A stretch of DNA of 32,000 nucleotides from Faecalibaculum rodentium. Lineage in GTDB: Bacteria; Bacillota_I; Bacilli_A; Erysipelotrichales; Erysipelotrichaceae. The first letter of the stretch is position 1. Each line of letters starts with the position of its first letter. A program made the position numbers and the translations under genes. The notes below the pieces were generated by a model. It made no database searches. It worked only from the letters and a program-made list of their open reading frames with translations, and was not told the origin of the DNA. Of the stretch, positions 1 through 14,520 are shown one piece after another. The stretch lies in NCBI RefSeq assembly GCF_001564455.1, contig NZ_CP011391.1, forward strand, positions 2,100,001-2,132,000, read 5' to 3'.

Positions 1-187
1 AAAAGAGAATCGAAACAAGTGAAGGAAATATCTTAAATAGAACTGACTATTCCGATAACCTTTAGAATATTTATATTTAACAATATTATCATTAATGCAC
101 TGATTAAAGTGTTATTTTATACTGTCAGACCGCTTATTTGATATAGAGCGAAATTTGCAATTTTTCAGTCTTTCACACTATCTCAGT

Positions 188-3052
188 TCACCAACTCTCC
201 ACCACCATCTCCAGCAGCTCCGCAGCTGCCACTTTATCCTTCACCCGAATCAGATGGTTCCAGGCATCCTCCGGACCTAACAGGTTGATGCCGCCATCCC
301 ACACCAGTTCCCTGTCGATCACCGCAAACGGATCAACCGGATCATCCAGCTCCCGGACGGAAAAACCTGCTTCTTTCAACCGGCGGATCGCTGCATCCTT
401 GGTCCCTTCCCAGCCATCATCGGCAGTAGTGAAAATGACAACGTCCACTTCATTCCTGCCTTCCATAGCCTGAAGCACTTTCTCTGCCCTGGAAAGAGTG
501 ATGGCAGGACTGGAAATTACGACTTCCTTTCTGGACTCCCGGAGATCCTGGAGGAAGGCATCCAGATAGTTGTCCAGGTCGAATATCGCATTGACGGTCT
601 GGGATACCGCAGGATCTGTTGTCTGCAGCTGCCAGGCCGCCTTTTTGTATGTCTTCAGACGCTTTCGATACATCCCCTGGAATACCGGAATCCGCCGGTC
701 AATGTAGTCATATACCTGCACTGTCTTCTTTCCGGGGTAGTCCCTGTTCAGCCGGCCGAGGAACTGCAGAAGCAGCCCTTCAAAGGCAATGGGTGATACA
801 AGAAACAGGGTATCGAGCCGGGGATAGCTGAATCCTTCTCCGATTTTCTGGCCTGTGGCAATGATGAGAACTGATTCGTTGTCCGGAACTCTCTTCAGCT
901 GACTCAGCTGTTCCCTGTTCTCTTTCTCAGAGTTGTCTCCATAAACCAGGAACAGATGATCTGCACTTCCTTCCAGGTGTCTGGCCAGCGTGGCTGCATG
1001 TGATTTCAGCCTTACGAATATGGCACAGGTATGACCTTCTGCAAGGGCCTGACGGACATCACCTGCAATCAGTTCGTTTCTCACAGGATCCTGTGCAATG
1101 TATTCATACAGCTCGTAGATGGCTGGCTTTTCTTCCCGCAGGCAGAGGCTGCGGGTAAACCGCGGGATAAGGAGCCTCTGCAGGTTCTGGCTCTTCGCCT
1201 TATCCATGGCACTGTAGGTGTGCCGAATATCGCCAATGAACATGGTGATAAGAGGATCCAGCTTGTCCGCCCGTTTCGGTGTGGCTGTCATGCCGTAGAG
1301 ATACGCAGGAGAAATCCGGTCCAGGATCTTTCGAAAGGTCGGAGATGCTGCATGGTGGCATTCATCCACGATGACCATTCCATAGCGGTCAGGAATGGAA
1401 TCCATGTTTCCCAGTGTCTGTGCCATGGCGATATCCACAAGGCCTGTCATGGTGTTTTTGGATCCCTTCAGGACACCGATGTGGCTTTTTCGCCTTCTGG
1501 TTTTCCCAGCCTTTGTCCGATACTCCGGAAGGGGTTCATCAAATTTCAAAAACTCCTCCAGCTCTTGCTGCCACTGTTCCAGAAGTGCGGTCTTTTCAAT
1601 GAGAATCAGCGTATTGACCTTCCTGTGCGCTATCAGGCTGGCTGCCACAACGGTTTTTCCGAAGGAAGTGGCGGCAGAGAGAATTCCATAGTCGTATTTC
1701 AGCAGTTCTTCCTGCGCTGCCTGCTGTTCCTGTCGGAGCGAACCCTGGAATTCAACGCGAAGCCATGCTCCCTTTTGCCGTTTGTCTCTGATCCGATAGT
1801 CGATGCGGCTGCTTTCCAGCCGGTGTTTCAGCGTATCCCGTATTCCACGGGGCAGCCGGATATAGCCGTCCACATCGCTGCCGATATACAGGATGCGGGG
1901 TGTGTTCCAGTTGGAATATCCAAAGCGTGTGTTCTCATACCAGGCGGGATTTGCCATGGCTGCCAGATTCCGAATCTGATTCTGCAGTCTGGGATGGAGT
2001 GTGAGGGCATCTACATAGATGCCATCGGCGAGGATGATGGTCAGAGTTCCATAGACATCTTCGGGATGGAATTCACTGTTCTGCTTCCAGGGATCCGGGC
2101 GATACTGGCTAGTCATAGCCAGTCTTCCCGTCTCAACCGCAAGTTCCTGGCCCCAGGTTTGGATATACTGCTCCATTTGTTCTCTGGTGAGCTTCTGACA
2201 CTCTTTCATGGCCTGCCACTGGTCGGGGATGGCATTCCAGTGTTCATCCACAAACGCTGTGTTGCCTTCTGTCAGCGAAGCACCGTGGAGGGGCAGTGCG
2301 ATGAGACTGCCGAGATCCTCTGTCTGGTCCTGTGCGGGAAACATCCGGTCGTAACACTGGTAGGACCTGAGAGGAACCAGCTGGCTGCCTTTGTTCAGCA
2401 GCAGCATACCAAACTGCCTGGCTGTGGAAGCTTTGACAGGTTCCTTGAAAAAGATCCAGACATGAGATCCCTTTCCGGAACGGGATCTTTCCACAAGGCA
2501 GTTGATTCCCAGCTGGGTGCAGATCATCCGCAGGGTTTCAGCTTCCTTCCTCGTCTGGGCTGGATCAGAGGCTTCGCTGTGAGCGTCAAAGTCAAAAACC
2601 AGAAACCGGCAGGTCCCATCAGGATGCAGTGGATAGATTCCAACAGGATTTGAGGACCCCAGCAGATGCCGGAGCAGGATTTTAGGGTTGATTGCCTCCC
2701 AGCCCCTGTGCAGACACTTGCTGCAGGGAGATTTTGGATTCGTGTGTTTAGGACAGACGCCGGCATTCCAGCGATACAGACACTGGGGATACCATCCTCC
2801 GTTTTTGCCTCGTTTGGCGTACACATCCATGCGGCCCCAGAACATAGAAAAGAAGAATCGGACCATGTATTCGGTGATCCATGGAAACTGGATCCGGGCT
2901 CCCTGATCCGGATCTGTATCAGGGGCTGATGGCATGGGCACTGGCAAGGATATATCATGAGACTCAAGCTGTTTTCTTAATTGTCTGTTTTCCTGTTCGA
3001 GACTTCGATATTTCTTTGCGAGTTCAATCAATGCCTGTTGAAGATATTCCAT
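188..3052 (-). CDS. AEP (archaeo-eukaryotic primase-polymerase) domain fused to an SF2 DEAD/DEAH-type helicase plus an extra C-terminal domain. Conflict-system type protein; resembles what I recall RefSeq naming TOTE conflict system AEP primase domain protein.
   Basis: Single 977-codon ORF (188..3121). Coiled coil LEQENRQLRKQLE. Cys cluster CPKHTNPKSPCSKCLH. AEP motifs FLVFDFDAH and SRSGKGSHVWIFF. Helicase motifs AATSFGKTVVAA (Walker A), VIVDECHH (II), GMTATP (III), QFLGRLNR (VI). The start is uncertain: no SD precedes TTG 3121, ATG 3082 or ATG 3052. I chose 3052 because it opens the coiled coil. Confidence 0.85.
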   Translation of the reverse strand: MEYLQQALIELAKKYRSLEQENRQLRKQLESHDISLPVPMPSAPDTDPDQGARIQFPWITEYMVRFFFSMFWGRMDVYAKRGKNGGWYPQCLYRWNAGVCPKHTNPKSPCSKCLHRGWEAINPKILLRHLLGSSNPVGIYPLHPDGTCRFLVFDFDAHSEASDPAQTRKEAETLRMICTQLGINCLVERSRSGKGSHVWIFFKEPVKASTARQFGMLLLNKGSQLVPLRSYQCYDRMFPAQDQTEDLGSLIALPLHGASLTEGNTAFVDEHWNAIPDQWQAMKECQKLTREQMEQYIQTWGQELAVETGRLAMTSQYRPDPWKQNSEFHPEDVYGTLTIILADGIYVDALTLHPRLQNQIRNLAAMANPAWYENTRFGYSNWNTPRILYIGSDVDGYIRLPRGIRDTLKHRLESSRIDYRIRDKRQKGAWLRVEFQGSLRQEQQAAQEELLKYDYGILSAATSFGKTVVAASLIAHRKVNTLILIEKTALLEQWQQELEEFLKFDEPLPEYRTKAGKTRRRKSHIGVLKGSKNTMTGLVDIAMAQTLGNMDSIPDRYGMVIVDECHHAASPTFRKILDRISPAYLYGMTATPKRADKLDPLITMFIGDIRHTYSAMDKAKSQNLQRLLIPRFTRSLCLREEKPAIYELYEYIAQDPVRNELIAGDVRQALAEGHTCAIFVRLKSHAATLARHLEGSADHLFLVYGDNSEKENREQLSQLKRVPDNESVLIIATGQKIGEGFSYPRLDTLFLVSPIAFEGLLLQFLGRLNRDYPGKKTVQVYDYIDRRIPVFQGMYRKRLKTYKKAAWQLQTTDPAVSQTVNAIFDLDNYLDAFLQDLRESRKEVVISSPAITLSRAEKVLQAMEGRNEVDVVIFTTADDGWEGTKDAAIRRLKEAGFSVRELDDPVDPFAVIDRELVWDGGINLLGPEDAWNHLIRVKDKVAAAELLEMVVESW

Positions 3053-3282
3053 GGCTTTATGATAACAAGTTTGTGTCGTCATAATGCAAGAAAGCCAAAC
3101 CCTATGCCCTGTCCGGAGCAAAATGCCGGTTCTTTCTCAGGTGTCTGAATCTCTGCTATACTCAGGAAGACTCAGGAAAAATTGCTGCAACAGTAACGTG
3201 TGGATGCCTGTCGCCTGCTTTGGATAAAGCGGGTGAATCATGGCGTATCCCTGCTTCTGTGCAGAGCAGGAAAGAACAGTCC

Positions 3283-3513
3283 ATGATTTTAGATGATTTG
3301 AACTTTGACGATATTGATCTGGATGTTTTGTTTGGGCGTGATTATGATGGCAAGGAATTTGACATGACGGAATATGTCGGTGTATGGAATGGATATGATG
3401 TGTATCTCGGGTATGCAGATGGAGAAGATCATGTCCTGCTGGTCAAGGGGAAACGGGCGTGGTATCCCAACAGTATGGACCTCGATGAGATCAAATACAT
3501 CTTTGATCTCTGA
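3283..3513 (+). CDS. Small, strongly acidic hypothetical protein (76 aa)
   Basis: ATG at 3283 is preceded by aggaaagaac. The 97-aa ORF in the track begins at a TTG with no SD. Sequence MILDDLNFDDIDLDVLFGRDYDGKEFDM... has about 19 D/E against 6 K/R. It is transcribed divergently from the AEP-helicase gene, and a hairpin terminator follows at 3600-3644. Confidence 0.5.
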   Translation: MILDDLNFDDIDLDVLFGRDYDGKEFDMTEYVGVWNGYDVYLGYADGEDHVLLVKGKRAWYPNSMDLDEIKYIFDL

Positions 3514-3593: not shown

Positions 3594-3653
3594 GATTTTA
3601 AAAAGCCTGGCGCTTTCACCACCGAAGCACCAGGCTTGTTTTTATGAATCATT
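3594..3653. repeat. Hairpin repeat copy 1 (bidirectional terminator-like): A-run, stem gcctggcgcttt/gaagcaccaggc, T-run
   Basis: The sequence gattttaaaaagcctggcgctttcaccaccgaagcaccaggcttgtttttatgaatcatt is closely similar to 5396..5451. It is a 12-bp stem with one mismatch, flanked by A5 and a T-rich run, so it can terminate transcription on either strand. Confidence 0.7.
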
Positions 3654-3896
3654 CAATTCACCTGCTTAAGGAAGTTCAAAATGAGATTCTGGCGGCAACA
3701 GAGATAGCTGTTTCAATCACAGTCATCAAAGTGTCAGGTTACCAAGCCTTCCATTTCATGATAAGAAGCTGCTATAAGAAATCCAAAAGCTGGAAACTGC
3801 TCGATTTATTGTTGGCAAACGACCAGTAGTTCGGCATATGGCCGGAGTCCACCCCATTGCGAATGAGCAGATTTCATTTCAATCGTTTCAGAAGTG

Positions 3897-4313
3897 TCAG
3901 GAATCCGATTTTCGTTCGAGCACAATATCATGATCCAGATCCAGACGACTGCAGTCAATGATTGGGAGCTTCACTTCCGATATTGTGTAGGATGTAATAG
4001 TCTGGACTGCCTCACGTACGTAAGGGAATGCAACAGCCATGAATCTTTTAATATGAGAGTTGATAGCATCAATATCATCTTCTTCAAAATCCCGAATCAG
4101 TCCCTCATCCTGCAGGGAAAAAATACTGGTAAATTCCATTGGAACTTCCTTGTCATGCTTTCCGCACAGCAAAATCTGGATCCCAACCGAGAGAAGGCGG
4201 TTTTTCCTTCTGTAATCATAACCGGTCACCCCTATTACAATTTCTTCGTAAGGATGTACTTCAGAGAGTTCATATTCAAGCTTTTCAAGCTTAAAATCCA
4301 AATAAGTAAACAT
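3897..4313 (-). CDS. SecB-like chaperone (third gene of a TAC toxin-antitoxin-chaperone module)
   Basis: 138 aa. The segment AVAFPYVREAVQTITSYTISEVKLPIIDC matches, by eye, the E. coli SecB region [29 protein letters not shown] (recalled from memory). The start lies 9 nt after the antitoxin stop and is preceded by gggggg. Confidence 0.7.
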   Translation of the reverse strand: MFTYLDFKLEKLEYELSEVHPYEEIVIGVTGYDYRRKNRLLSVGIQILLCGKHDKEVPMEFTSIFSLQDEGLIRDFEEDDIDAINSHIKRFMAVAFPYVREAVQTITSYTISEVKLPIIDCSRLDLDHDIVLERKSDS

Positions 4314-4322
4314 ATTCCCCCC

Positions 4323-4793
4323 CTACGCCTGCAGAAACACAGCTTGATTCTTAGCTCTGTCCACTGTCTCGACAGGTACGTATACATCAATCGCAGATGG
4401 TCTGCTTTGCCAGCTGTTTTCTTCAGATTCCCATTTCCCGATATCATAACAGTCAAGGGCATAGGCTCGAATCTTGTGACATTCTCTCGCTTCATCTTTT
4501 CGCTTAGGTTCAGTAACGGCGCTCTTCCTGAACTGGTACAACTCGCTCACCAGCTCGGGGTGTCGATCCAGCAGGTAAAGAGTCCTGCTGGCGGCTCCTT
4601 TGATTGGGTTGGCCCCCTGTTCCCATTTTTCAATGGTTTTTTCGCTTAGCCCCAGCATCTTTGCCATCATTCTCTGTGAAAGTCCCAGTTTCTGCCGAAG
4701 GGCTTTTGCAAAACTATTGGTCGTAATCTCTTCTGTGTTTGTAAACTCATTTTTACAAACAGGCATCTTTTTCAAAGCTTCTATATCAAACAT
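4323..4793 (-). CDS. XRE/HigA-type HTH antitoxin with a ~68-aa C-terminal extension (candidate chaperone-addiction region)
   Basis: 156 aa. HTH core FAKALRQKLGLSQRMMAKMLGLSEKTIEKWEQGANPIKGAASRTLYLL. The extra tail FRKSAVTEPKRKDEARECHKIRAYALDCYDIGKWESEENSWQSRPSAIDVYVPVETV... is rich in aromatic residues. SD gaggag lies upstream. Confidence 0.75.
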   Translation of the reverse strand: MFDIEALKKMPVCKNEFTNTEEITTNSFAKALRQKLGLSQRMMAKMLGLSEKTIEKWEQGANPIKGAASRTLYLLDRHPELVSELYQFRKSAVTEPKRKDEARECHKIRAYALDCYDIGKWESEENSWQSRPSAIDVYVPVETVDRAKNQAVFLQA

Positions 4794-4811
4794 ATTCTCT
4801 CCTCTAAATAT

Positions 4812-4832
4812 CTTCAGGTCTTTGACCTGAAG
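4812..4832. promoter_or_regulatory. Perfect 9-bp-arm palindrome cttcaggtc-ttt-gacctgaag between the toxin and antitoxin genes
   Basis: Read directly from the sequence. It lies in the 92-bp toxin-antitoxin gap, about 19 nt upstream of the antitoxin ATG and just 5' of its SD. It could be an RNA hairpin or a candidate HTH operator. Confidence 0.45.
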
Positions 4833-4885
4833 CAGTCAATCCACATCTTTCACGCCAGGGTTCCACTATTTTTTTCCGAAATCGG

Positions 4886-5311
4886 TCATTCTTTTTCACT
4901 GGCTTCCCGGACTTTCTCCAGGTTGCTGACCAATTTACGAAGCTGATTCTTCTCGTTGGATGTCAAATCAGTCTTCGGCTTCTTTCCTGCATGTTTATGA
5001 TAAATATGACAGATAAATGAAGTCTCGCAAAGAGCTGCAACCAGAATGATCCTGTATCCTCCACGTTTGCCACTATTGCGCTTTGGATCTTTGCAGCGCA
5101 TTTTATAAACAGCCAGATCCGAATATTTCTCTGACTGAATCAATCTGCTTCCAGAACGATCATTCTCGAGATCATCCGCTACATCCTGAAGTATCTGATT
5201 GTATCCTGACTGCCCAAGTCCCGTTCTCTTCAGATCTTTCTCCAGGTCAAACCCATAATCCTTCAGTTCCCGCAGGAGATCAGGACTGTCAAAAGTATCA
5301 GTCAGATTCAT
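4886..5311 (-). CDS. RelE/ParE-superfamily (HigB-like) toxin
   Basis: 141 aa. The motif VYKMRCKDPKRNSGKRGGYRIILVA...FICHIYHKHAGKKPKTDLTSNEKNQLRKLV is typical of RelE/HigB-type addiction-module toxins. It is the first gene of the toxin-antitoxin-chaperone order. Confidence 0.7.
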   Translation of the reverse strand: MNLTDTFDSPDLLRELKDYGFDLEKDLKRTGLGQSGYNQILQDVADDLENDRSGSRLIQSEKYSDLAVYKMRCKDPKRNSGKRGGYRIILVAALCETSFICHIYHKHAGKKPKTDLTSNEKNQLRKLVSNLEKVREASEKE

Positions 5312-5327
5312 AATCCATCCCCAATCG

Positions 5328-5358
5328 CCCTATTTAGTAGGGTATTCAAATCATACCA
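5328..5358 (-). promoter_or_regulatory. Candidate promoter of the TAC operon (extended -10 TGgTATGAT) followed by the small palindrome CCCTA-N5-TAGGG
   Basis: The minus strand reads tggtatgat at 5358..5350. The palindrome ccctatttagtaggg at 5328..5342 lies between the -10 and the toxin RBS. Confidence 0.4.
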
Positions 5359-5395
5359 TATTCTGCCTTTGAAAAAGATATATATTACCGTTATG

Positions 5396-5451
5396 GATTC
5401 AAAAAGCCTAGCGCTTTACTCCTGAAGCACCAGGCTCATTTTCTGTTCATT
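5396..5451. repeat. Hairpin repeat copy 2 (terminator of the FMN reductase gene)
   Basis: The sequence gattcaaaaagcctagcgctttactcctgaagcaccaggctcattttctgttcatt is a near-copy of 3594..3653, offset by 1801 bp. On the minus strand the hairpin is followed by ttttt directly after the stop of the 5451..6002 gene. Confidence 0.7.
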
Positions 5452-6002
5452 TATCCCAGTAGTGTATCGATCTGCCCTTCGAGCATTTCCTTCACACCCG
5501 GTGTCTTCATGACATCATCGCTGCCCCAGCTTTCCGGAGACAGGGCAATGCCTTCAGAACTGATCACCGTCATGCCCATGAACTTGCAAAGCAGAGACAG
5601 GTTTTTCCTTACGCCAAAGCCTGCAGCCCTGCCACCGGCGGTTGTCAGCAGCACTTTTCGGCCATAGACCGCTGTATCCGATTTATCCGCCCCGGGCTTC
5701 AGCCCCCGGGACAGCCAGTCCAGCAGGTTCTTTTCTCCGCCGGGAATCTGCCCGTTATATTCCGGGGAAAAGATCCAGATCACATTGCAGCCCATGACCT
5801 CATCCCGGACTTTCTGCACAGCTTCCGGTGTCGGGAACTCGTCATCCTGACTGAAAAACGGCACATCGAGCCACTCGATCATTTCCACCTTCTGCCCCTT
5901 TTCCTCCAGCATGGTTCTCGCAAGACTGGCCAGCTGTCTGTTGAAGCTGTTCTTTCTCCTGCTGCCCACCAGCAGCCCGATTGTATCGGTTTCATTGTTC
6001 AT
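5451..6002 (-). CDS. NAD(P)H-dependent FMN reductase family oxidoreductase
   Basis: ATG at 6002 has SD aggagg 8 nt upstream. The N-terminus LVGSRRKNSFNRQLASLA plus IWIFSPEYNGQIPGGEKNLLDWLSR are typical of this family. The longer track ORF (to 6131) lacks an SD. Confidence 0.8.
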   Translation of the reverse strand: MNNETDTIGLLVGSRRKNSFNRQLASLARTMLEEKGQKVEMIEWLDVPFFSQDDEFPTPEAVQKVRDEVMGCNVIWIFSPEYNGQIPGGEKNLLDWLSRGLKPGADKSDTAVYGRKVLLTTAGGRAAGFGVRKNLSLLCKFMGMTVISSEGIALSPESWGSDDVMKTPGVKEMLEGQIDTLLG

Positions 6003-6227
6003 TGATTGTTCCTCCTGAATGATATGGGATAAACCAGTGATTCCCGGCTTTCTCCCTCTCTCTTCAGTATAAAGGGTCAAGTGGAACGGGCTCTGTCTGG
6101 TGCCCCTGCGGTATATAGAAAAGTGTTCCACTGATTCCGGTTGTATTTGCGGTCATGACAACGGTCCTGACAACATCGTCACTCTTCCACCATCGGCACT
6201 CCCCGTCTCCACCATCCCCATCACAAA

Positions 6228-6271
6228 AAGCAGCGGCTGCCCCCTGCCCGGGAGAAACCACTGCTTTTGTT
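6228..6271 (-). terminator. Rho-independent terminator of the GRE-activase-aldolase operon
   Basis: The minus strand reads aagcagtgg-loop-ccgctgctt followed by tttt, about 25 nt after the aldolase stop. Confidence 0.55.
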
Positions 6272-6294
6272 CGTCATTCTGTTTGAAATCTGCT

Positions 6295-6999
6295 TTATTC
6301 CTCTGTCAGCTTGTCTTCGATGTCTTCACTTTCATCGAACAGAGTATCCCGCATATAGGCGCGGTTCCAGTTCACACAGAACTCACCTACGGCAATGCGC
6401 GTGGCCGGGTGGTTGATCATTTCATAGACCACATCCGCAGGCACTGTCACGGCTCCAATGCCGTTTTCAATCAGCTCGCTGACCTGGCCCACGTTTTTGA
6501 AGCTCGCCGCAATCACCTTGGAATCCAGACCGTTTTCCTTGATCATCCGGTTCAGCTTCAGGACCTCGGCAACGCCGTCACCATAGTTGCACATCCGGTT
6601 GGTATAGGGAGCCAGGTAGTTGGCACCGTTCTGCGCTGCCAGGAATCCCTGTGCAGGGGTGTAAATGGCTGTGGCCAGAGTCTTGATGCCTTCCTTGCGG
6701 CACTGTTTCAGAGCCTTGAGACCGTCACGAGAAACCGGGATCTTCACATACATGTTTTCCGGGCGCATGGCGCTGATCTTCCGGGCTTCGTCCATGATGC
6801 CTTCATAGTCTGTCTTGACGACCTGCACGAAGAGCTTCTGCTCCGGGGACAGGATGGAAATGATTTCCGGCAGCACATCCTCGGGCATCCGCCCGCTTTT
6901 TGTCAGGATCGTGGGGTTGGTGGTGACACCGGCGACTGTGATCAGTTCATTGAGATCGCGAATGCGTGCAACATCGGCTGTATCCAGCATGAATTCCAT
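6295..6999 (-). CDS. Transaldolase-family protein of the fructose-6-phosphate aldolase (Fsa/TalC) type
   Basis: 234 aa. The N-terminus MEFMLDTADVARIRDLNELITVAGVTTNPTIL and the short length are typical of the small Fsa/TalC subgroup. SD aaggagg lies upstream. Confidence 0.8.
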   Translation of the reverse strand: MEFMLDTADVARIRDLNELITVAGVTTNPTILTKSGRMPEDVLPEIISILSPEQKLFVQVVKTDYEGIMDEARKISAMRPENMYVKIPVSRDGLKALKQCRKEGIKTLATAIYTPAQGFLAAQNGANYLAPYTNRMCNYGDGVAEVLKLNRMIKENGLDSKVIAASFKNVGQVSELIENGIGAVTVPADVVYEMINHPATRIAVGEFCVNWNRAYMRDTLFDESEDIEDKLTEE

Positions 7000-7060
7000 A
7001 AGAAGTTCCTCCTTGTACCTTGTCTGTTCTATGTGATTTATCGTATCTGCCAGATCCGGG

Positions 7061-8047
7061 TCACTCCTCGATGAGGTTCATGACACCGTTGTCACTGGCA
7101 GTTTGTCTGAATGCGTTCATTTCATCCCCAGTGAACATGGGATGAGGCGGCAGGCTGTAGTCCTGTCCCGTCATTTCGTATTTCGCCGACGCAAGCGGGT
7201 TGTAGTTGAGCAGCTCATACTTGACGCCGGGGTAATGGCCCGAGATCCACCGGGCGATGCCGCCGATGTTTTCCTTCGTGGCAGTATATCCCGGAATCAG
7301 CGGGGTGCGGATGATGACCTTGTCCCTGTGCTCCGGGGAATCCAGGAGCCAGGCAATGTTTTCCAGGATCTGGGTGTTGTCCCGCCCTGTGGCGTGTCTG
7401 TGCCCTGCCGGATCCAGGATCTTGATGTCGGCGAAGATCCGGTCAAGGTAGGGGGCACAGGCCTTCACCAGGGTCGGGTCGGCGAAGAAACTCGATTCAA
7501 TCGCGGTGTGAAATCCCTCGGCTTTGCATCGCTTCAGGATATCCTCCAGGAAGTGTCCTTGGAGAAAAGGCTCGCCACCGGAGAACGTCACGCCGCCGCC
7601 GCTCTTAAAGAATACCGCATCTTCCCGGATCTTTTCCATCAGGGTGTCCAGGTCATAGGGCGTGCTGTCGTAGCGGATCGCCGCCGCAGGACAGGCATAG
7701 ACGACTTCATCGAAATGCCCGGGGTACTGATGGTTCAGCACCGGTGCCCCGTCTTTCCATTCCAGCTGACCTGGTCTGGCAGCGGCTTTGCAGCGGCCGC
7801 AGTGAATGCACTGGTTTTTCAGATACACCGGCTGTCTGGCAGCCCTGAGCCCTTCGGGGTTCTGGCACCATTTGCAGCGAAGGGGACAGCCTTTGAAGAA
7901 CACCGTCGTGCGGATCCCGTCTCCGTCATGCACGGCAAACCGCTTGATGTCAAACACCAGAGCCTTCCAGTGAGGCTGCAGGTGATGCCTTTCAGCTTCT
8001 CCCTGAATCTCGCAGGTGTCTGTCATCTGCCTTTCAGTTGTATTCAT
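7061..8047 (-). CDS. Glycyl-radical enzyme activating enzyme (radical SAM)
   Basis: DGDGIRTTVFFKGCPLRCKWCQNPE carries the CX3CX2C motif. A ferredoxin-like Cys cluster CIHCGRC...YACPAAAI is also present. ATG 8047 has SD ggaggg. Confidence 0.9.
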   Translation of the reverse strand: MNTTERQMTDTCEIQGEAERHHLQPHWKALVFDIKRFAVHDGDGIRTTVFFKGCPLRCKWCQNPEGLRAARQPVYLKNQCIHCGRCKAAARPGQLEWKDGAPVLNHQYPGHFDEVVYACPAAAIRYDSTPYDLDTLMEKIREDAVFFKSGGGVTFSGGEPFLQGHFLEDILKRCKAEGFHTAIESSFFADPTLVKACAPYLDRIFADIKILDPAGHRHATGRDNTQILENIAWLLDSPEHRDKVIIRTPLIPGYTATKENIGGIARWISGHYPGVKYELLNYNPLASAKYEMTGQDYSLPPHPMFTGDEMNAFRQTASDNGVMNLIEE

Positions 8048-8134
8048 GAAAGGTTCCCTCCTCTCTGCCTCCGGCCTCACCCCATCTGACAGCGGTCCGG
8101 CTGCCCGGACTTCCGGCCAGCCGGTAAGGCCATA

Positions 8135-10483
8135 CTAGATATCCGCGTAGCTGGTCCGCTCGATGATTTCGTCCTGGAGCTTGCCGGCCAGTTCCGTAAA
8201 GTACGCAGTATAACCTGCAACCCGCACCGTCAGGGACTGGTGCCGCTCCGGATGGATCTGGGCATCGATCAGGTCCTCCCGGTTCACAACATTGAACTGA
8301 ATATGGGGAATCTCCAGGTCCACGAACGCCCGCAGGAAGTGCTCGAACTTGTCCCGCCCTGTCTGAGTCCGGAAGAACTCCGGCAGGAATTTCATGTTCA
8401 GCAGTCCGCCATTGGTTGTGAAGGAATCATCCATCCGGGAAACGGATTTCAGCACCGCCGTCGGTCCGGTCATGTCCCGGCCATATACCGGCGACATCCC
8501 GCCATCCGCCAGAGGCTCTTTCGCTTTCCGCCCATCGGCAGAGGCGCCGACATTTTCCCCCATCGGAACGTGAGCGCTGACGGTGTACATTCCCGTGTGG
8601 TACGGGCCGCCGCGGTAGTTGGTGTAGTCCTTCATCCGCTCCCGGAAGTAGCCAGCCCACTTGGCCCCCAGGTCATCCACCCATTGGATGTCGTTGCCGT
8701 ACTTCGGTGCCCGCTTCAGCAGCATCGTCTGCGTAATTTCATGACCCTCGAAGTTCTCCGCCAGAGCCTGCTTCAGCTCCTCGCGGGAAATCCGCTTCTC
8801 ATCGTAAACCAGTTCCTTGATCGCCGCCAGGGAATCCGCCAGGTTGGCCACCTGAATCATCTGGATCCCCGAGAGGTTGTACTTTGCGCCGCCCGCCGTG
8901 ACATCCAGGCCCTTGTCCAGGCAGTCGTCAATGACCGCCGACAGGAAAGCCGTCGGCAGACAGTCCTGATGCGCCTTTTCCACCACCACTTCGGCTTTCA
9001 TCATTTCATCAATGAAATGGTCGATGGTCTTCCGGAAGGCCTCCTCGAGTTCTTCAAAGGTTTCGAATTCCTCGATCCCCCCGAAATCCGGGCCAATCTG
9101 TTCGCCCGTCAGCAGGCACTTGCCGTGGTTCATCGCCAGCTCCAGGGCTTTGTTCAGATTGAACATCGCCGCATCGCTCCACCCCAGGTTGTTGCCGTGG
9201 GTTGTGAGCTCCACGCAGCCCACAATGGCGTAGTCCCGCGCATCTTTTTCCTCGATGCCCAGGTCCTGGACCATGGTGTGAATGATTGCCTCGTCATTGA
9301 AGAACTGCGGCATGCCGGAGCCCTTCGCCACGACCTGGATCGCATCCTGCAACAGTTCCCGGCTCGTGTTGCGGTTCAGCCGCACAGAGAGATTGGGCTG
9401 CGGCAGCCCCAGGTCGTACTGCGCCTTGAGGAGCAGCAGCGACAGGTCATTGTAGGTGTCGTTGCCCTCTTCGTCCACGCCGCCAATCGCGATATTGAAC
9501 CCGATGGGGAACCCCGCGAAGTACTTCGCCGAGTGCTGGTTGCGCAGATAGACGATCTGGTTGAATTTCAGCCACAGCGCCTCGAGGATCTCCAGAGCTT
9601 TCTGTTCCGTGAGCCTGCCCTCCCGGATGTCTTTTTCATAATACGGCCAGAGGTACTGGTCCATGCGCCCGGGCGAGAAAGAAGAAGCGTTGGATTCCAT
9701 GTGGAGGATCGTGAACAGGAACCAAAGAGACTGCACCGCTTCGTGGAAGGTCTGTGCCCCGCGGTCCGCAAGTGCCTCGCAGATATCCGCCAGATCCAGC
9801 AGATCATCCCGATAAGCTTCGTTCTCCGCCGCTGTTTTCTCCAGCAGCCGGGCATATCGCCGCATGAAGGTCCGGGCGCCTTCCATCACGAGAATCACCG
9901 CATCGTAGAACTCCGGGTTATCCGGGTGCTGTTCCTTCGCCTGCCGCGCTTTTTCCGCCAGCCCTGCTGGTCCAAGTTCCAGCCACAGCTTCGTATCCGG
10001 ACAGATGTGTCCCTGTGCATGGTCCTTCTGGTTGATCTTCACGACCTTCGCCATAGCCGAAATTTCCGGACCATAGTTCTGTGAAATCACATCTTCCATG
10101 GACCGCCCGTGCCAATATGGATAGATTTCTTCCCGGAACTCCCGGATGTCTTCCTCACGCACCTGGAACTTGTCCTGGGGCCTGGTGGGCAGTGTCTCGA
10201 ATTCCTCGTTGATCCATTTCAGACCCGATTCCGGGAACACCACACCCGCGCGGACGCCTTTGGTCCGGTTGCCGACGATGAGTTCCTCGGGCTGCACTGC
10301 AATTTCGAGTTCCTCCAGCGCGGCTTTCAGGGAAAGGGCACGCTTGAGTACCGTGGACTTGTCTTCGTTTTCCTTATAGACCCGGGTGATGATTCGTGCC
10401 TGTTCAATGGAGGCATACCGGGGCTCCGCGAGCATTTTGTCTTTCAGAATGTCAATGCGTTCTGTTTTCTTCAAATCTTTCAT
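8135..10483 (-). CDS. Glycyl radical enzyme, PflD/YbiW-like clade (dehydratase-type GRE, not a true pyruvate formate-lyase)
   Basis: 782 aa. Glycyl motif VRVAGYTAYF and Cys loop IVGCVELT. Long by-eye matches to E. coli PflD as I recall it: LPTRPQDKFQVREED, YPYWHGRSMED, MESNASSFSPGRMDQY, YFAGFPIGF, LPQPNLSVR, GMPQFFNDE. The stop codon is TAG. Confidence 0.9.
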   Translation of the reverse strand: MKDLKKTERIDILKDKMLAEPRYASIEQARIITRVYKENEDKSTVLKRALSLKAALEELEIAVQPEELIVGNRTKGVRAGVVFPESGLKWINEEFETLPTRPQDKFQVREEDIREFREEIYPYWHGRSMEDVISQNYGPEISAMAKVVKINQKDHAQGHICPDTKLWLELGPAGLAEKARQAKEQHPDNPEFYDAVILVMEGARTFMRRYARLLEKTAAENEAYRDDLLDLADICEALADRGAQTFHEAVQSLWFLFTILHMESNASSFSPGRMDQYLWPYYEKDIREGRLTEQKALEILEALWLKFNQIVYLRNQHSAKYFAGFPIGFNIAIGGVDEEGNDTYNDLSLLLLKAQYDLGLPQPNLSVRLNRNTSRELLQDAIQVVAKGSGMPQFFNDEAIIHTMVQDLGIEEKDARDYAIVGCVELTTHGNNLGWSDAAMFNLNKALELAMNHGKCLLTGEQIGPDFGGIEEFETFEELEEAFRKTIDHFIDEMMKAEVVVEKAHQDCLPTAFLSAVIDDCLDKGLDVTAGGAKYNLSGIQMIQVANLADSLAAIKELVYDEKRISREELKQALAENFEGHEITQTMLLKRAPKYGNDIQWVDDLGAKWAGYFRERMKDYTNYRGGPYHTGMYTVSAHVPMGENVGASADGRKAKEPLADGGMSPVYGRDMTGPTAVLKSVSRMDDSFTTNGGLLNMKFLPEFFRTQTGRDKFEHFLRAFVDLEIPHIQFNVVNREDLIDAQIHPERHQSLTVRVAGYTAYFTELAGKLQDEIIERTSYADI

Positions 10484-10513
10484 TGCGTGCTCCTTGTCTT
10501 GTTTACACTTACC

Positions 10514-10541
10514 AGTATACCGAAATAACTCTTGTTTTCAA
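10514..10541 (-). promoter_or_regulatory. Candidate sigma-70 promoter of the GRE operon: TTGAAA-16-TATACT
   Basis: The minus strand reads ttgaaaacaagagttatttcggtatact, about 30 nt upstream of ATG 10483, which has SD aaggag. Confidence 0.55.
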
Positions 10542-10734
10542 TTGTTTTATATTGTTTTTGCGAATAAACGAGACAGAACAGTCTTTCCTGCCGATGATGA
10601 CAGGCAGCTGAAGGCGCGGCTGCAGCCGGGCATTCAGCACGCCGCCCTGGATGTGTGTTCCTGTTAATCTGGAAAATCCTGGGGATAGCGGTGCTCTGAA
10701 GATCGGTTGAAATAAAAAGGCAGCCAATAATCTG

Positions 10735-10857
10735 GATTTGCGTGAGAAACGGTCTGTTATGGAGAGAGTTCAGGCTTTTCGTGAGAAAATTGCGTGTTTT
10801 CGTGAGATTTATCGTGAGAAATCTCACGAAAATCTCAGGATTCACAGGAAAACCGGC
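10735..10857. repeat. CGTGAGA heptamer array, unit 1 (4 direct copies plus 1 inverted copy forming the palindrome CGTGAGA-AA-TCTCACG at 10813..10828)
   Basis: cgtgaga occurs at 10741, 10780, 10801 and 10813, and tctcacg at 10822. About 75 bp (10780-10857) is ~85-90 percent identical by eye to unit 2. Confidence 0.8.
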
Positions 10858-10951
10858 TGTTTTGGGAAGAAAAAGAGGAGGATTCTCTGCTCAGAAGGTA
10901 ATCATTAGTTGATATAGCAGAGAATAATATAAAATGAGTAATCCAGCAGTG

Positions 10952-11055
10952 AATTTGCGTGAGATTTTTTCCTTTTCATGAGAAAAATGTCCGTTTTCGT
11001 GAGAATTATCGTGAGAAATCTCACGAAACTCTCAGGATTTCACACGATTTCCGGA
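10952..11055. repeat. CGTGAGA heptamer array, unit 2 (palindrome CGTGAGA-AA-TCTCACG at 11010..11025)
   Basis: cgtgaga occurs at 10958, 10998 and 11010, a degenerate catgaga at 10977, and tctcacg at 11019. The last three heptamers are offset exactly 197 bp from their unit 1 counterparts. Confidence 0.8.
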
Positions 11056-11076
11056 TTTCTCCATAGCCTCCTATCC

Positions 11077-11128
11077 AAAAAACTGCCGGTGAAGCCCTGT
11101 GTATTCCACAGCCTTCATCGGCAGTTTT
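11077..11128 (-). terminator. Rho-independent (bidirectional) terminator after deoR
   Basis: A6, a 12-bp stem ctgccggtgaag/cttcatcggcag (one G-U pair), then T4. On the minus strand the hairpin is followed by tttttt, 11 nt after the regulator stop. Confidence 0.7.
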
Positions 11129-11138
11129 ATCATGGTTC

Positions 11139-11891
11139 TTACAATACCTCGGTGAGCTCCGCTGCAGCCTGCCGCTGGGTGGAACTGTCGCCGGTGATCA
11201 GGACATCGAAGTCCGAGACATGAGCGAAAATGAATGCACCGTCCTGGTTGAACTTGCTGCTTTCCGCAAACAGCACCGTCCGGCGGCTGGACTCCATGAC
11301 GGCTTTTTTCGTGAGTCCATCCTCGACGTTGTAGGTCATGACCGCATCCTTGTCGAGATTCACCCCCACGGCCCCCATGAAGGAGACCGCAAAATTGAAT
11401 TCCCGGATCTGGCGCTGGGCGAGTCCCCCGACAAATCCGTCCCGTCCTTTGTTCAGCTGGCCGCCAATGAACAGCACCTGCCGGTTTTCATCTGCGGCGA
11501 AAAGATCCAGGATCTGTGTCATATTCGTGACCACCGTGACATCGATGTTTTCCTGGATCATGAGCCGCGCCAGCTGCAGCGTGGTGCTCGATATCCCCAG
11601 AAACACCAGGGATCCCGGCTCCATGAGCGACAGCGCTTTGCGGGCCATGGCAGTTTTTTCCTCCACGTTCTCAATCACCCGGTCCCGGGCCTTCATGATG
11701 TGGAAATTGCTGCGGACGCTCACAGCTCCGCCGTGGATGCGCCTGAGCTGTCCCTGTTTCTCCAGCGCTGTCAGGTCCTTGCGGATGCAGTCTTCTGTCA
11801 CTTCGAATTCCCGTGCCAGGTCCTTCACCAGCACCTGCCGGGTGATGGCCAGCCGCCGCAGGATCTGCTCGTGGCGTTCGTTCTGCGTCAT
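11139..11891 (-). CDS. DeoR/GlpR-family transcriptional regulator
   Basis: 250 aa. N-terminal HTH RHEQILRRLAITRQVLVKDLAREFEVTEDCIRKDLTALE with a C-terminal DeoR-type sugar-phosphate sensor region. Its ATG overlaps the proC stop (ATGA). Confidence 0.9.
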   Translation of the reverse strand: MTQNERHEQILRRLAITRQVLVKDLAREFEVTEDCIRKDLTALEKQGQLRRIHGGAVSVRSNFHIMKARDRVIENVEEKTAMARKALSLMEPGSLVFLGISSTTLQLARLMIQENIDVTVVTNMTQILDLFAADENRQVLFIGGQLNKGRDGFVGGLAQRQIREFNFAVSFMGAVGVNLDKDAVMTYNVEDGLTKKAVMESSRRTVLFAESSKFNQDGAFIFAHVSDFDVLITGDSSTQRQAAAELTEVL

Positions 11892-12670
11892 TGCCGGTTC
11901 ATCACCGCATCCACCGCATCAATGATGTCACCCCGGAATCCGTCTTTTTCCAGCTGCGACACCCCGCGGATCGTGGTGCCCCCGGGACTGCAGACAGAAT
12001 CTTTCATCACTCCGGGGTGATTGTGGTCAGCCATGAACAGCGCACCGGTGCCTTCCAGGACCCGGGCCGCCATTTCCAGTGCCTGCGCCCGCTGCAGGCC
12101 ATATTTTACGCCTGCATCCGAGAGAGCCTCGATGAACATCGCCGCAAATGCCGGGGAGCATCCGGCTATGGTCCCTGCGATGCCCATGTGCTCGCTGTCC
12201 ACCGGTGCAATCAGCGCGATGGGCCCGAACAGCTCCGCCAGTTTTGCCTCCATATCTGCACTGAGAGTGGACCCGGTTTCCCACACCAGGATCCCCTGCC
12301 CCACGCGGATGGGTGTATTGGGCATCACACAGAGGCTTTCGCAGTCATCCGGCAGCAGCGGCCGGAGTTTCCTGTCGGTAAATCCCGCCGCAATGCAGAC
12401 GACGGTTTTGTTCACCAGTGCACTGCGGATCTCCTGTGTCACGGTCTCCATCATATAGGGTTTGACAGCCAGGATCACCACATCTCCGGCTGCCGCAGCC
12501 TCCAGATTTGTCTGACAGGCATGAATGCCGAGCGTGGCGGCTTTTTTCTCCAGTTTGTCGAAATGCGCTGCACTGGCGTAGATGTTCTGCGCCGGCAGGC
12601 AGTCAAATTCGATCAGTCCCTGAGCCATGGCCCCTGCCATGTTCCCGAATCCAATAAATGAAAGCTTCAT
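11888..12670 (-). CDS. proC: Pyrroline-5-carboxylate reductase
   Basis: 260 aa. The N-terminus MKLSFIGFGNMAGAMAQGL is a Rossmann motif, and ...MPNTP...GTIAGCSPAF...VCSPGGTTI... are typical ProC motifs. Confidence 0.9.
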   Translation of the reverse strand: MKLSFIGFGNMAGAMAQGLIEFDCLPAQNIYASAAHFDKLEKKAATLGIHACQTNLEAAAAGDVVILAVKPYMMETVTQEIRSALVNKTVVCIAAGFTDRKLRPLLPDDCESLCVMPNTPIRVGQGILVWETGSTLSADMEAKLAELFGPIALIAPVDSEHMGIAGTIAGCSPAFAAMFIEALSDAGVKYGLQRAQALEMAARVLEGTGALFMADHNHPGVMKDSVCSPGGTTIRGVSQLEKDGFRGDIIDAVDAVMNRQ

Positions 12671-12698
12671 GGTGTCTCCTTCTGTTCCTTCTGTACCT

Positions 12699-12744
12699 TA
12701 TTATTTGTATCTTCTGTTTTCTATTACTTGTATCCTCTGTTTTC
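12699..12744. repeat. Two tandem 23-bp direct repeats in the proC upstream region
   Basis: tattatttgtatcttctgttttc (12699-12721) is followed directly by tattacttgtatcctctgttttc (12722-12744), with 2 mismatches. They lie 29-74 nt upstream of the proC ATG. Confidence 0.8.
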
Positions 12745-12843
12745 TGCTGTCAGGCAGCATCCCCCCAAGCCTCTGGACCGGGCAGCCATCTTCCGATGTC
12801 CCTGTCTGCCGGCATTGGCAGGCGGTCCCTGCGTACAGGCTGA

Positions 12844-13755
12844 CTACTGCTTCCGGAAAATCTTCCAGTTGCGGATTACCAGGATCTCCGCCAGTGTCAG
12901 GATCACGCAGAACACGATCACCGACGTATAGCCCCAGGGCTCCTTGAGCAGGTGCATGTTCACGAAATTCATTCCGAACCAGCCGGTGATCAGCGTCAGA
13001 GGGGTAAAAATCGATGTCACGATCGTCAACAGATTCACCAGGTCATTCTGACGCTCCGAGAGCTTTGCCTGCTTCATGTCCAGCACCTGTGTCAGGGATT
13101 CCTTCAGCGTGTGTGTCATCTGCGCGAGGTGCTGCACACGCTGGATGTACAGGGACAGCAGCGTCTGGGCGGTTTCATCCCCGGACTGCACCACGACCTG
13201 TTCCATGGTCTGGGCCATGTTCGAGAGCTGCTCGTAGTAGGTGTACAGGGCATTGAGCTGACTGCGCATGTACATGAAATCCTTGCCGGTGTCCGCAACT
13301 GTGCCGGCATTCATGCGCTCGGCGAGCTGGGAGAGCGTCTTTTCGTATCCCTGCAGGACGTAGAGATCCTCCCGGATCAGGTATTCCATGAAGTCCAAAA
13401 GAAACACCAGCGGTGTCCGGATCTCATCGTCGTATTCTTCCTCCATGGCCCTGACTTTCTTGCGCACCTTGGAGCCTTCGTCAATGAAATACAGCTTGTC
13501 GGGAGTCAGGCAGAAGGCAAAGATGTTGTGCGAAATCTGGAGGTTTTTCTTGGACGGGATCACAAAGGTCCCGTACACCAGTCCCCGGAAGTTCGAGGCC
13601 TTGCAGAATTCCGGCTTGCTGATGACTTTGTCAATGTGCCTGATGCTGCAGATCCCCGGCTCTTTCTTGCGGAATTCCTCCAGCCCCAGGATCTCCACCT
13701 GGTCGGCGTCTGACTGCACCGTCGTGTTTTCGGTTTCCACGGTTTCCATGTTCAT
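12844..13755 (-). CDS. corA: CorA-family magnesium/cobalt transporter
   Basis: 303 aa. The C-terminus carries two hydrophobic helices and the signature ITGWFGMNFVNM (GMN motif). Confidence 0.85.
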   Translation of the reverse strand: MNMETVETENTTVQSDADQVEILGLEEFRKKEPGICSIRHIDKVISKPEFCKASNFRGLVYGTFVIPSKKNLQISHNIFAFCLTPDKLYFIDEGSKVRKKVRAMEEEYDDEIRTPLVFLLDFMEYLIREDLYVLQGYEKTLSQLAERMNAGTVADTGKDFMYMRSQLNALYTYYEQLSNMAQTMEQVVVQSGDETAQTLLSLYIQRVQHLAQMTHTLKESLTQVLDMKQAKLSERQNDLVNLLTIVTSIFTPLTLITGWFGMNFVNMHLLKEPWGYTSVIVFCVILTLAEILVIRNWKIFRKQ

Positions 13756-14429
13756 GCCTCCTGGTGTCCTGTTACGGCTGATGCCGGTTCTGCTGCGGAT
13801 GCCCGACTGGCTGCCGGATTGCTCCGTCCGCCTTCGGTTTTTCCATCATCGGCCTCCGGGTCTGCAGAAGCGCTGTCCTTCAGGCGGTAGAAATGGGCGC
13901 GGGAAATGCCATAGACTTTCTCCCGGAACTTTTCCAGGTTCCCGTACTCCGAAGCCATGTCCTTTTCCTTCCGGGTGCGGATCACGAGCACGCCATCGTC
14001 CTCCAGCAGACGGGTCTGGCCCATGCGCTGCATAACAGGTTCGAAGATCTCGTCCACGGTGTAGGGAGGATCGAGATAAATGATGTCAAAGGTCTCCCCT
14101 TTTTTGTCGAGACGGCTGACGGCGTCGAACACATCTTCCTGGAGCACCACGGCGTGTTTCATGAGTCCCAGATTCTGCAGGTTGCGGCGGATGACATCGG
14201 CGGCATCTTTCCGTTTTTCCACCATGACGGCGCGCTCTGCCCCGCGGGAGAGGGCTTCGATGCCCATGGATCCCGATCCGGAGAAGAGATCGAGAAAGCG
14301 GCAGCCCGGAATGTCGAACTGCCAGATATTGAAAAGAGACTGCCGGATTTTGTCCGTCACGGGGCGGGTATCCAGCCCGGCGGGTGCTTCGATGGCACGG
14401 CCTCTTGCGGTTCCTGAAATCACTCGCAT
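13752..14429 (-). CDS. rsmD: 16S rRNA (guanine966-N2)-methyltransferase RsmD with a low-complexity C-terminal tail
   Basis: MRVISGTARGRAIEAPAGLDTRPVTDKIRQSLFNIW...FLDLFSGSGSMGIEALSRGA...IYLDPPY. It overlaps the corA start by 4 bp. Confidence 0.85.
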   Translation of the reverse strand: MRVISGTARGRAIEAPAGLDTRPVTDKIRQSLFNIWQFDIPGCRFLDLFSGSGSMGIEALSRGAERAVMVEKRKDAADVIRRNLQNLGLMKHAVVLQEDVFDAVSRLDKKGETFDIIYLDPPYTVDEIFEPVMQRMGQTRLLEDDGVLVIRTRKEKDMASEYGNLEKFREKVYGISRAHFYRLKDSASADPEADDGKTEGGRSNPAASRASAAEPASAVTGHQEA

Positions 14430-14520
14430 GCGATCACCTCGTTACAAGGATAGCACGGCAGCTGCCGCGACGGGCAACAGGAAGCAGAAGCGGGGTCCAG
14501 GGAGCTGATATACTGGGGCC

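Follow-up and report, generated by a model that had tools for sequence, protein, structure and literature searches.

What purpose does a fused primase-helicase serve on a bacterial chromosome when no element that it might replicate is in sight? This question is raised by a gene at the left edge of a 32,000-nucleotide stretch of DNA from Faecalibaculum rodentium, a bacterium of the mouse gut (RefSeq assembly GCF_001564455.1, contig NZ_CP011391.1, positions 2,100,001 to 2,132,000 of the forward strand; hereafter the window). The complete gene lies at window 188..3052 on the minus strand, with its stop codon at 188-190, and encodes a protein of 954 amino acids (aa) in which an archaeo-eukaryotic primase (AEP) of the primase-polymerase (Prim-Pol) type is joined to an XPB-like superfamily 2 (SF2) helicase and a pseudo-phospholipase D (PLD) tail. 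Pfam and NCBI have already named the family, which is uncharacterised, and the protein belongs to it as an ordinary member. The explanation we place first, to which we lend somewhat less than even credence, is that we are dealing with a conflict (defence-type) enzyme of the AEP-TOTE family, complete in one protein, which has become fixed in the F. rodentium chromosome. Because the gene has long been under purifying selection, has no recombinase beside it and encodes a non-ring SF2 motor, it would appear to have a useful role without an element to replicate. Those three facts, together with the defence-rich neighbourhoods and effector-type fusions of its relatives, are the reasons for ranking a conflict role ahead of the alternatives weighed below.

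Architecture of the primase-helicase

The first-pass annotation of this DNA had implied the plus strand and counted 977 codons, and both points needed revision. The uninterrupted open reading frame (ORF) at window 188..3121 is on the minus strand in the ORF listing; its 977-codon version begins at a TTG, the alternative start being an ATG at 3052 (MEYLQQ..., Met24 of the 977-codon ORF). Since the 23 codons before Met24 hold stop codons in three other F. rodentium alleles, and since the homologue P0001 (93% identical) is itself 954 aa long, the true start is most likely the ATG at 3052, and residues are numbered throughout for the resulting 954-aa protein. Motif coordinates, all on the minus strand, were verified by translation, and every motif that the annotation had quoted (FDFD, SRSGKGSHVWIFF, GKT, DECH, TATP, QxxGRxxR and PFAVIDRELVWDGGINLLG) was located in this way. 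NCBI gives the products the names "TOTE ... primase domain-containing protein" or "DEAD/DEAH box helicase family protein".

The AEP (Prim-Pol) domain spans residues 63-295 (2168..2866) and is a near-complete match to Pfam AEP-TOTE (PF22548; 251.9 bits against a gathering threshold of 27 bits, E 7.5e-75, 229 of 230 profile positions). The PADLOC model for cas-associated PrimPol also matched the domain (E 7.5e-53), and the NCBIfam CAPP model scored 87 bits, under its 200-bit cut-off. The putative catalytic residues D154 and D156 (FDFD, nucleotides (nt) 2585-2593), H197 (SRSGKGSHVWIFF, nt 2462-2464) and D235 (nt 2348-2350) are invariant across an alignment of 121 homologues. The DxD and His (G.H.WIFF) motifs align exactly with the CAPP Prim-Pol structures 7nqd and 7nqf, the N-terminal F..F.GR.DV motif aligns as well, and the third acidic residue aligned to within one position in a sequence-only alignment. 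A Foldseek comparison of the full-length structure model with CAPP gave target-normalised template-modelling (TM) scores of 0.73-0.81. With all three motifs and the modelled fold present, the primase part is assigned to the AEP superfamily, Prim-Pol type, in agreement with the first-pass annotation.

Inserted within this domain is a four-cysteine knuckle (2714..2782) whose residues C91, C100, C110 and C113 are each invariant in the 121 homologues, which bears out an earlier reading of a Cys-rich knuckle and suggests a probable zinc site. Ahead of the primase, residues 1-31 (MEYLQQALIELAKKYRSLEQENRQLRKQLES; 2960..3052) were modelled as a single helix over residues 2-31, in line with the coiled coil that had been called from the letters. 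This helix gave a weak leucine-zipper (TSC22) match and has L, R, EN and L positions conserved among homologues; it is probably a coiled coil that serves oligomerisation, judging from the model.

A beta-rich linker, residues 319-440 (1733..2098), leads from the primase to the helicase, with strands and helices modelled over 337-435 at a predicted local distance difference test (pLDDT) score of 79-92. The region matched no family, and its motifs RLQNQIR, GYSN and PRG are conserved among homologues. The helicase core itself occupies residues 441-810 (623..1732; Pfam ResIII, E 2.6e-22) and carries GKT (nt 1652-1660), DECH (1355-1366), TATP (1277-1288) and QFLGRLNR, a QxxGRxxR motif (743-766); the Helicase_C profile match was weak. 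In the 121-sequence alignment GKT, DECH, (T/S)AT and Q..GR..R are invariant. Among solved structures the best sequence match was XPBII (4.9e-13), with Rad25/XPB and UvsW also close, and Foldseek ranked XPB/Ssl2/XPBII first, followed by UvsW, SauUSI and RadD. Alignments to XPB ran over 500-750 columns, a length that suggests extra elements common to XPB and the modelled window protein. By sequence and model, the helicase is a complete SF2 core, as had been proposed, and of the XPB/ResIII-like kind.

The C-terminal tail was likewise anticipated correctly, as a PLD/Nuc-type fold without the HxK dyad. The domain model and Foldseek place a PLD/Nuc fold at residues 826-950 (203..577), and a separate model of residues 815-954 (pLDDT 87.6, predicted TM score 0.84) recovered Nuc (1byr, TM 0.80/0.75), NucT, Zucchini and PLD3, as well as the non-catalytic PLD-like domains of TrmBL2 and FAM83. 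A degenerate 16-residue motif, PFAVIDRELVWDGGIN (nt 284-331), replaces the canonical HxK(x)4D..GSxN, with PFAVIDRELVWDGGINLLG beginning at nt 331. It reads P908-F-A910-V-I-D913...W918-x-G-G-x-N923 (G-G-I-N923 in the window). Where the catalytic Lys would stand, 119 of 121 homologues have Ala. The position of the catalytic His (908) is still His in 108 of 121, Pro in the window protein and P0001, and Asn in P0002 and P0003. Precomputed PF13091 (PLDc_2) matches fall in the tails of many relatives, and the PADLOC MkoC model matched weakly across the window's tail. By the canonical HxK criterion, the tail is predicted to be catalytically dead in the window's clade. Since His and Lys are gone yet the tail is under purifying selection among F. 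rodentium alleles (ratio of nonsynonymous to synonymous polymorphism, pN/pS, of 0.12), it appears to work as a non-catalytic module.

The locus across F. rodentium strains

The gene was present in all of the distinct F. rodentium strain configurations that we sampled (6/6), so that the accessory-island gene of the first-pass annotation is better described as a constant one, and only a nearby toxin-antitoxin-chaperone (TAC) module comes and goes. Pairs of alleles gave ratios of nonsynonymous to synonymous substitution (dN/dS) of 0.07-0.15 with dS up to 0.40, and pN/pS per domain was 0.03-0.21 in all domains. Direct translation gave an unbroken frame between Met24 and the stop codon for each allele. 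These alignments indicate that the gene is maintained and functional and not a decaying remnant. Called lengths of 739, 892, 954 and 964 aa had raised the possibility of pseudogenisation; direct translation identified the differences as gene-calling artefacts. The guanine-cytosine (GC) content of the gene region (0.49-0.53) is lower than that of the surrounding housekeeping genes (~0.57-0.60), which suggests acquisition.

Allelic differences are unevenly spread. Compared with the nearest contig (L106), 159 of 161 mismatches over 8 kb lie inside the gene's 3' 2.3 kb (window 179-2500), and the alleles of other strains are mosaic, with 81-100% identity per 300-nt segment. This pattern indicates intragenic recombination between divergent alleles, perhaps not special to this gene. 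Diversifying selection on the gene was considered and set aside, as flanking genes, too, are 83-100% identical between the other strains and dN/dS is ~0.1.

A stable chromosomal gene under purifying selection would also fit a host role in damage tolerance or repair, in which the Prim-Pol would re-prime or carry out translesion synthesis or end joining at stalled forks and breaks and the XPB-like motor, by analogy with nucleotide-excision repair, would open the DNA. The helicase is nearest to the XPB/Rad25 and RadD repair helicases, and there is a precedent in AgaPP, a Prim-Pol of mobile-element origin that can perform translesion synthesis and microhomology-mediated end joining and can improve survival after damage (PMC11724360). 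Against this stand the signs of acquisition in the GC content and the variable contexts of relatives, which sit in islands and on plasmids beside Abi, toxin-antitoxin and recombinase genes and not in repair operons. We regard a repair role as distinctly improbable.

Could the gene instead belong, as its effector, to a canonical multi-gene TOTE system with partners just beyond the window? Its primase domain is named after TOTE by both Pfam and NCBI, and the first-pass annotation had applied the same label and pointed out that any left-hand partner gene would be cut off by the window edge. TOTE conflict systems were reportedly defined by Aravind, Iyer and Burroughs in 2022. As outlined in a preprint, the name stands for tetratricopeptide repeat (TPR), oligonucleotide-binding fold (OB), TATA-binding protein (TBP) and Effector, and the common genes are a TPR-cold-shock fusion and TATA-binding-protein-like proteins (bioRxiv 10.1101/2025.09.15.676423). 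Same-species contigs identical to window 1-187 run left into sulfatase and acyltransferase genes, and no partner gene is cut off at that edge. Other F. rodentium strains diverge 66 bp past the stop codon (window 121), where a DUF2335 membrane protein, an 80-aa ORF and an FRG-domain gene come next. Pfam results for the genes called up to 10 kb to either side of the locus in same-species contigs included no TPR, S1/cold-shock (CSD), OB or TBP domain, and no TPR-OB partner was found among the window ORFs to 6.1 kb.

The relatives gave the same picture. No TPR-OB or TBP partner was found among the immediate neighbours of 64-67 loci or among the Pfam matches of ~30 further loci, TBP was not among the 25 most frequent families listed for 131 immediate neighbours, and no cold-shock domain occurred in 1,117 ORFs within 10 kb of relatives. 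The sole TPR protein seen near relatives was a STAND NTPase in some serine-recombinase elements. By sequence, then, the protein is a member of the AEP-TOTE domain family and not of a TOTE system: the label given earlier agrees with Pfam PF22548 and the NCBI name, and the partners it would imply were found at none of ~100 loci. We consider the multi-gene effector explanation very improbable indeed. The database name "TOTE conflict system" is accordingly no evidence that a TOTE system is present.

Relatives, their neighbours and their mobility genes

The family is large and widespread. Homologues gave more than 4,334 matches in a protein database clustered at 90%, and 1,310 clusters (50% identity) at E<=1e-30; the 150 highest-ranking of these are primase-plus-helicase proteins without exception. 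Scanning one genome per species placed relatives in at least 515 stretches; the best 80 of these are mostly Lachnospiraceae, and immediate neighbours were taken from 64-67 loci. The family is common in gut Bacillota and on alphaproteobacterial plasmids. In the tree, the window protein groups with P0001, P0002 and P0003 in a clade that is sister to the remaining Bacillota sequences with a tail, and P0002 and P0003 are likewise encoded by lone genes amid housekeeping genes.

Architecture varies around a constant centre. All eight longer relatives that we scanned have AEP-TOTE followed by a ResIII helicase, and family members of ~800 aa without the tail also exist. Some relatives carry N-terminal fusions ahead of the primase, either a PNP_UDP_1 phosphorylase-like domain (P0219) or a GNAT acetyltransferase (P0179); both are common effector modules in conflict systems. 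Beside P0219, the PLD-like part is a separate 90-aa ORF (5525-5797 of its locus, L114).

Around one fifth (~20%) of the immediate neighbours at the 64-67 related loci are defence or candidate-defence genes. They include AbiD/Abi_2 (5), AbiEii (at least 3), AlbA_2/HATPase_c_4 (~7), SoFic (2), GajB-like (2) and prokaryotic Argonaute (pAgo; 2) genes, as well as AAA_14, PDC-S01/02/04/05/22, McrBC and STAND-TPR NTPase genes. Two of 64 genes directly downstream of relatives match Argonaute models (PADLOC pAgo, 1.2e-25). As a side observation, the pAgo neighbours recall the published pAgo/Prim-Pol association. Beyond the ribosome-binding region, no motif was common to 63 loci of relatives. In 50,697 phage records we found no full-length homologue, and no PHROG family matched over the full length, which argues that this is not a phage replication gene and favours the conflict reading.

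A second kind of neighbour supports a different explanation, namely that the protein is a DNA-synthesis module of mobile elements, which would replicate or repair an excised circle or transposition intermediate, or prime the complementary strand at establishment in a new host, and that the F. rodentium copy lost its recombinase, was left an orphan and was then kept or co-opted. A primase-polymerase with a helicase is the classical mobile-element replication module (PMC5862659), with an example in SCCmec (PMC7581432). At 15 of the 64 loci of Lachnospiraceae type, the AEP gene is followed on the same strand by a large serine recombinase that begins 32-74 bp past its stop codon. The resulting AEP-recombinase block of ~4.7 kb has 92-97% DNA identity among Blautia, Dorea, Maccoyibacter and a Clostridiaceae isolate and ~85% to Muricoprocola, while its flanks and upstream cargo vary, the cargo being of defence type (STAND-TPR, Abi_2, AbiE). 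At three of these loci (L046, L039 and L062) the block lies at ~9835-14590, and its right end consistently falls ~80 bp short of the stop codon of the recombinase. We considered whether the AEP gene and the serine recombinase form a complete 4.7-kb element by themselves; with another reference, homology reaches up to 8 kb further left in some genomes, leaving the left end undefined, and this delimitation was dropped. A search of limited sensitivity found only 2 tyrosine integrases within 10 kb of the Lachnospiraceae loci.

On plasmids, where 40 near-full-length matches were found, mostly in Alphaproteobacteria, the partners are different. We sampled 12 plasmid loci, and 9 of these adjoin a tyrosine-recombinase trio or Tni module: in 4 of 12 the gene is convergent with a recombinase trio at 41-71 bp, in 2 of 12 the trio or its remnant lies within 1 kb, and in 3 of 12 TniQ, TniB or TniA is adjacent. 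On Gemmobacter fulvus plasmid p4 (NZ_CP076365.1; locus positions 3622-9961 of L091), perfect 176-bp inverted repeats enclose a 6.3-kb unit that contains exactly one AEP-helicase gene and three tyrosine-recombinase genes. A homologous unit on Paracoccus aminophilus pAMI8 (L100) is inverted relative to common flanking DNA, and the convergent arrangement recurs on Sulfitobacter, Paracoccus and Rhizobium plasmids. On Sphingobium yanoikuyae pTB1 (673-8265 of L097), the gene is the last of a hyp-TniB-TniQ-AEP operon and overlaps tniQ by 4 nt. The homologues on plasmids of Bradyrhizobium (L094) and Sinorhizobium (L101) have Tni genes next to them as well.

Several observations speak against the mobile-element explanation for the window gene. 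No integrase, transposase, replication, partition or capsid gene was found within 10 kb on either side in same-species contigs, no recombinase or transposase occurs within 10 kb of the locus in the same-species variants, and no convincing repeats flank the gene. The stand-alone state reported by the first-pass annotation, free of integrase, replication and capsid genes, thus extends from the window to these contigs. A stranded replicase should decay, whereas this gene is intact with dN/dS ~0.1, and its helicase is a monomeric-type XPB-like SF2 enzyme and not a ring-forming SF3, SF4 or MCM one. The host plasmids, at 80 kb to 1 Mb, have replicon types on record for most. The serine-recombinase-linked loci are confined to one subclade of the tree, and at L039 (21600-21924) a second copy of the recombinase shares the leader (GTTGGGACA repeats) and has no AEP gene beside it. 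This last arrangement is cassette behaviour, and we count it in favour of a conflict gene. Taken together, we hold the mobile-element explanation to be less likely than not, although it is the strongest of the rivals.

The earlier annotation had preferred a conflict role over a replicase, and had held that a prophage or plasmid replication module in the extended context would point to an ordinary replicative primase-helicase. At the locus itself no such module and no mobility genes were seen, in keeping with that preference; some relatives are tightly coupled to recombinase or Tni genes, three mobility machineries in all, and a replicase role therefore keeps an appreciable probability beside a defence role. 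A bolder and rather improbable proposal is that AEP-XPB-(pseudo)PLD proteins are the DNA-synthesis engine of unrecognised compact, self-replicating integrative elements with interchangeable recombination machinery (large serine recombinase, tyrosine-recombinase trio or TniABQ). If true, these would be a bacterial counterpart of pipolins and casposons, and lone copies such as the window gene would either descend from them by domestication or be cassettes of one gene with an undescribed way of moving. That the family pairs repeatedly with three unrelated mobility machineries is, in our view, the most interesting lead of this analysis, and the recombinase-coupled relatives should be weighed before the family is called a defence gene.

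Proposed action, adjoining genes and known counterparts

How might a single protein act in conflict? If the reading as a self-contained conflict enzyme holds, the XPB-like SF2 motor would use ATP to track on or open duplex DNA, whether it belongs to an invader or to an aberrant replication intermediate, and the fused Prim-Pol with its zinc knuckle would begin and extend strands on the exposed single strand. Such unscheduled primers or strands could stall or derail replication of the invader. The coiled coil and the PLD-fold tail may keep the protein dimeric and hold DNA phosphates or ends; the tail itself would do no cutting, with the catalytic His and Lys gone. We infer this mechanism by analogy with what XPB, CAPP and Nuc-family dimers are known to do, and the target, all enzymatic activities, dimerisation and a protective phenotype are inferred along with it. 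Precedents exist for defence by Prim-Pols: Thermus Ppol with its helicase restricts environmental DNA (PMC7693054), and DRT7, according to its summary description, has a primase-polymerase domain.

Other observations weigh against a conflict enzyme. The literature we searched contained no experimental study of the AEP-TOTE primase-helicase family, in line with the first-pass annotation, which knew of no experiment on its mechanism or on a defence phenotype, and the conflict label is a computational prediction. The window's clade has no nuclease or other obvious killing module, so that the effector step is a matter of conjecture. Among the PADLOC models none is dedicated to this architecture, and the matches are to cas-associated PrimPol and generic helicases. 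A backbone gene of a mobile element would show defence-rich neighbourhoods too. Finally, one Firmicutes subclade and most of the sampled plasmid relatives are coupled to recombinases or transposition genes, and this coupling fits a role in the element's own DNA transactions.

Whichever role applies, an XPB-type motor that opens the duplex and is fused to a primase-polymerase could, with no separate initiator, begin synthesis on double-stranded DNA, and this would be a new activity, whether it served immunity or the propagation of a mobile element. The F. rodentium locus would offer a clean test case, being a single partnerless gene with natural allelic variants and a tail predicted to be non-catalytic.

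Upstream of the primase-helicase gene, a non-coding stretch (3053..3219) separates it from a divergent small ORF and may hold its promoter; no sigma-70-like site on the minus strand upstream of the gene scored above our scan threshold, and Rfam and tRNA scans found no RNA genes in the window. The small acidic ORF, which the first-pass annotation had noticed, does exist at 3220-3513 on the plus strand (76 aa from an internal ATG). Gene callers report it in strains that carry TAC, whereas indels disrupt it in L001, the closest strain without TAC; it had no match in Pfam, NCBIfam, PADLOC or PHROGs.

The toxin-antitoxin-chaperone-like cassette comprises three genes at 3897-5311 on the minus strand, whose order and sizes fit a HigB/RelE-like toxin, a helix-turn-helix (HTH) antitoxin and a SecB-like chaperone. 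The antitoxin is well supported (MqsA 1.8e-08, HTH_3 2.1e-08, TIGR03830 4.6e-13). The other two members of the module described earlier gave only weak matches, with RelE at best 1.1e-04 for the toxin, under the Pfam cut-off, and PADLOC PD-T4-9_C at best 1.9e-04 for the chaperone; neither had a sequence match in the PDB. Window 3642-5396 (1.8 kb), which carries TAC, is absent from strains L001, L104 and L110 and lies between the two copies (3597-3642 and 5398-5442) of an imperfect 46-bp direct repeat that corresponds to the FMN-reductase terminator hairpin. The TAC module is a separate insertion of 1.8 kb, set between duplicated terminators, and not a partner of the primase-helicase. Beyond it, window ~5450-12000 holds an ordinary, conserved housekeeping block on the minus strand, with genes for FMN reductase, transaldolase/FSA, a glycyl-radical-enzyme activase, a PFL-like glycyl radical enzyme and a DeoR regulator. 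The same-species contigs were reached through exact matches to its transaldolase and FMN-reductase proteins, the exact sequence of the primase-helicase itself not being on record.

Set against known systems, the window protein resembles several of them in part. It shares with TOTE systems a primase that is a full-length, high-scoring AEP-TOTE member, whereas their TPR-cold-shock fusion and TBP-like gene are missing both at the window locus and at ~100 related loci. The closest solved primase is CAPP from Marinitoga sp. 1137 (7nqd, 7nqe, 7nqf and 7p9j), which it matches in motifs and fold, but the window protein has no CRISPR-Cas context and adds the four-cysteine insertion, the fused XPB-like helicase and the PLD-fold tail. 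For the helicase core, XPB/Rad25/Ssl2 and archaeal XPBII are the best matches in sequence and fold; XPB, in contrast, lacks a primase and acts as part of TFIIH or together with the nuclease Bax1.

The tail has the fold of Nuc, NucT, Zucchini and PLD3 (TM 0.80 to Nuc), and in the helicase-PLD defence enzymes SauUSI and Mokosh MkoC a single chain likewise joins an SF2 helicase to a domain of PLD fold. Unlike in the PLD nucleases, Lys is replaced by Ala in the family tail and His by Pro in the window, and in kind the domain would be nearer to the PLD-like domains of TrmBL2 and FAM83. Primase-polymerase and helicase also occur together in pRN1-type fusions, PrimPol-PV1 and the Cch/CCPol of SCCmec, and one subclade of relatives forms, as in SCCmec, an operon with a large serine recombinase. 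Those mobile-element modules, however, use ring-forming SF3, MCM or DUF927-type helicases and another AEP clade, whereas the window protein has an XPB-like SF2 motor and no recombinase. Lastly, Ppol-Hel of Thermus thermophilus ICETh2, and AgaPP with its helicase, are alike by description in pairing a Prim-Pol with a helicase of mobile-element origin, and the roles reported for them, restriction of incoming DNA in Thermus and repair for AgaPP, are other than replicating the element; each partner has its own gene, however, and their AEP and helicase families appear to be different ones.

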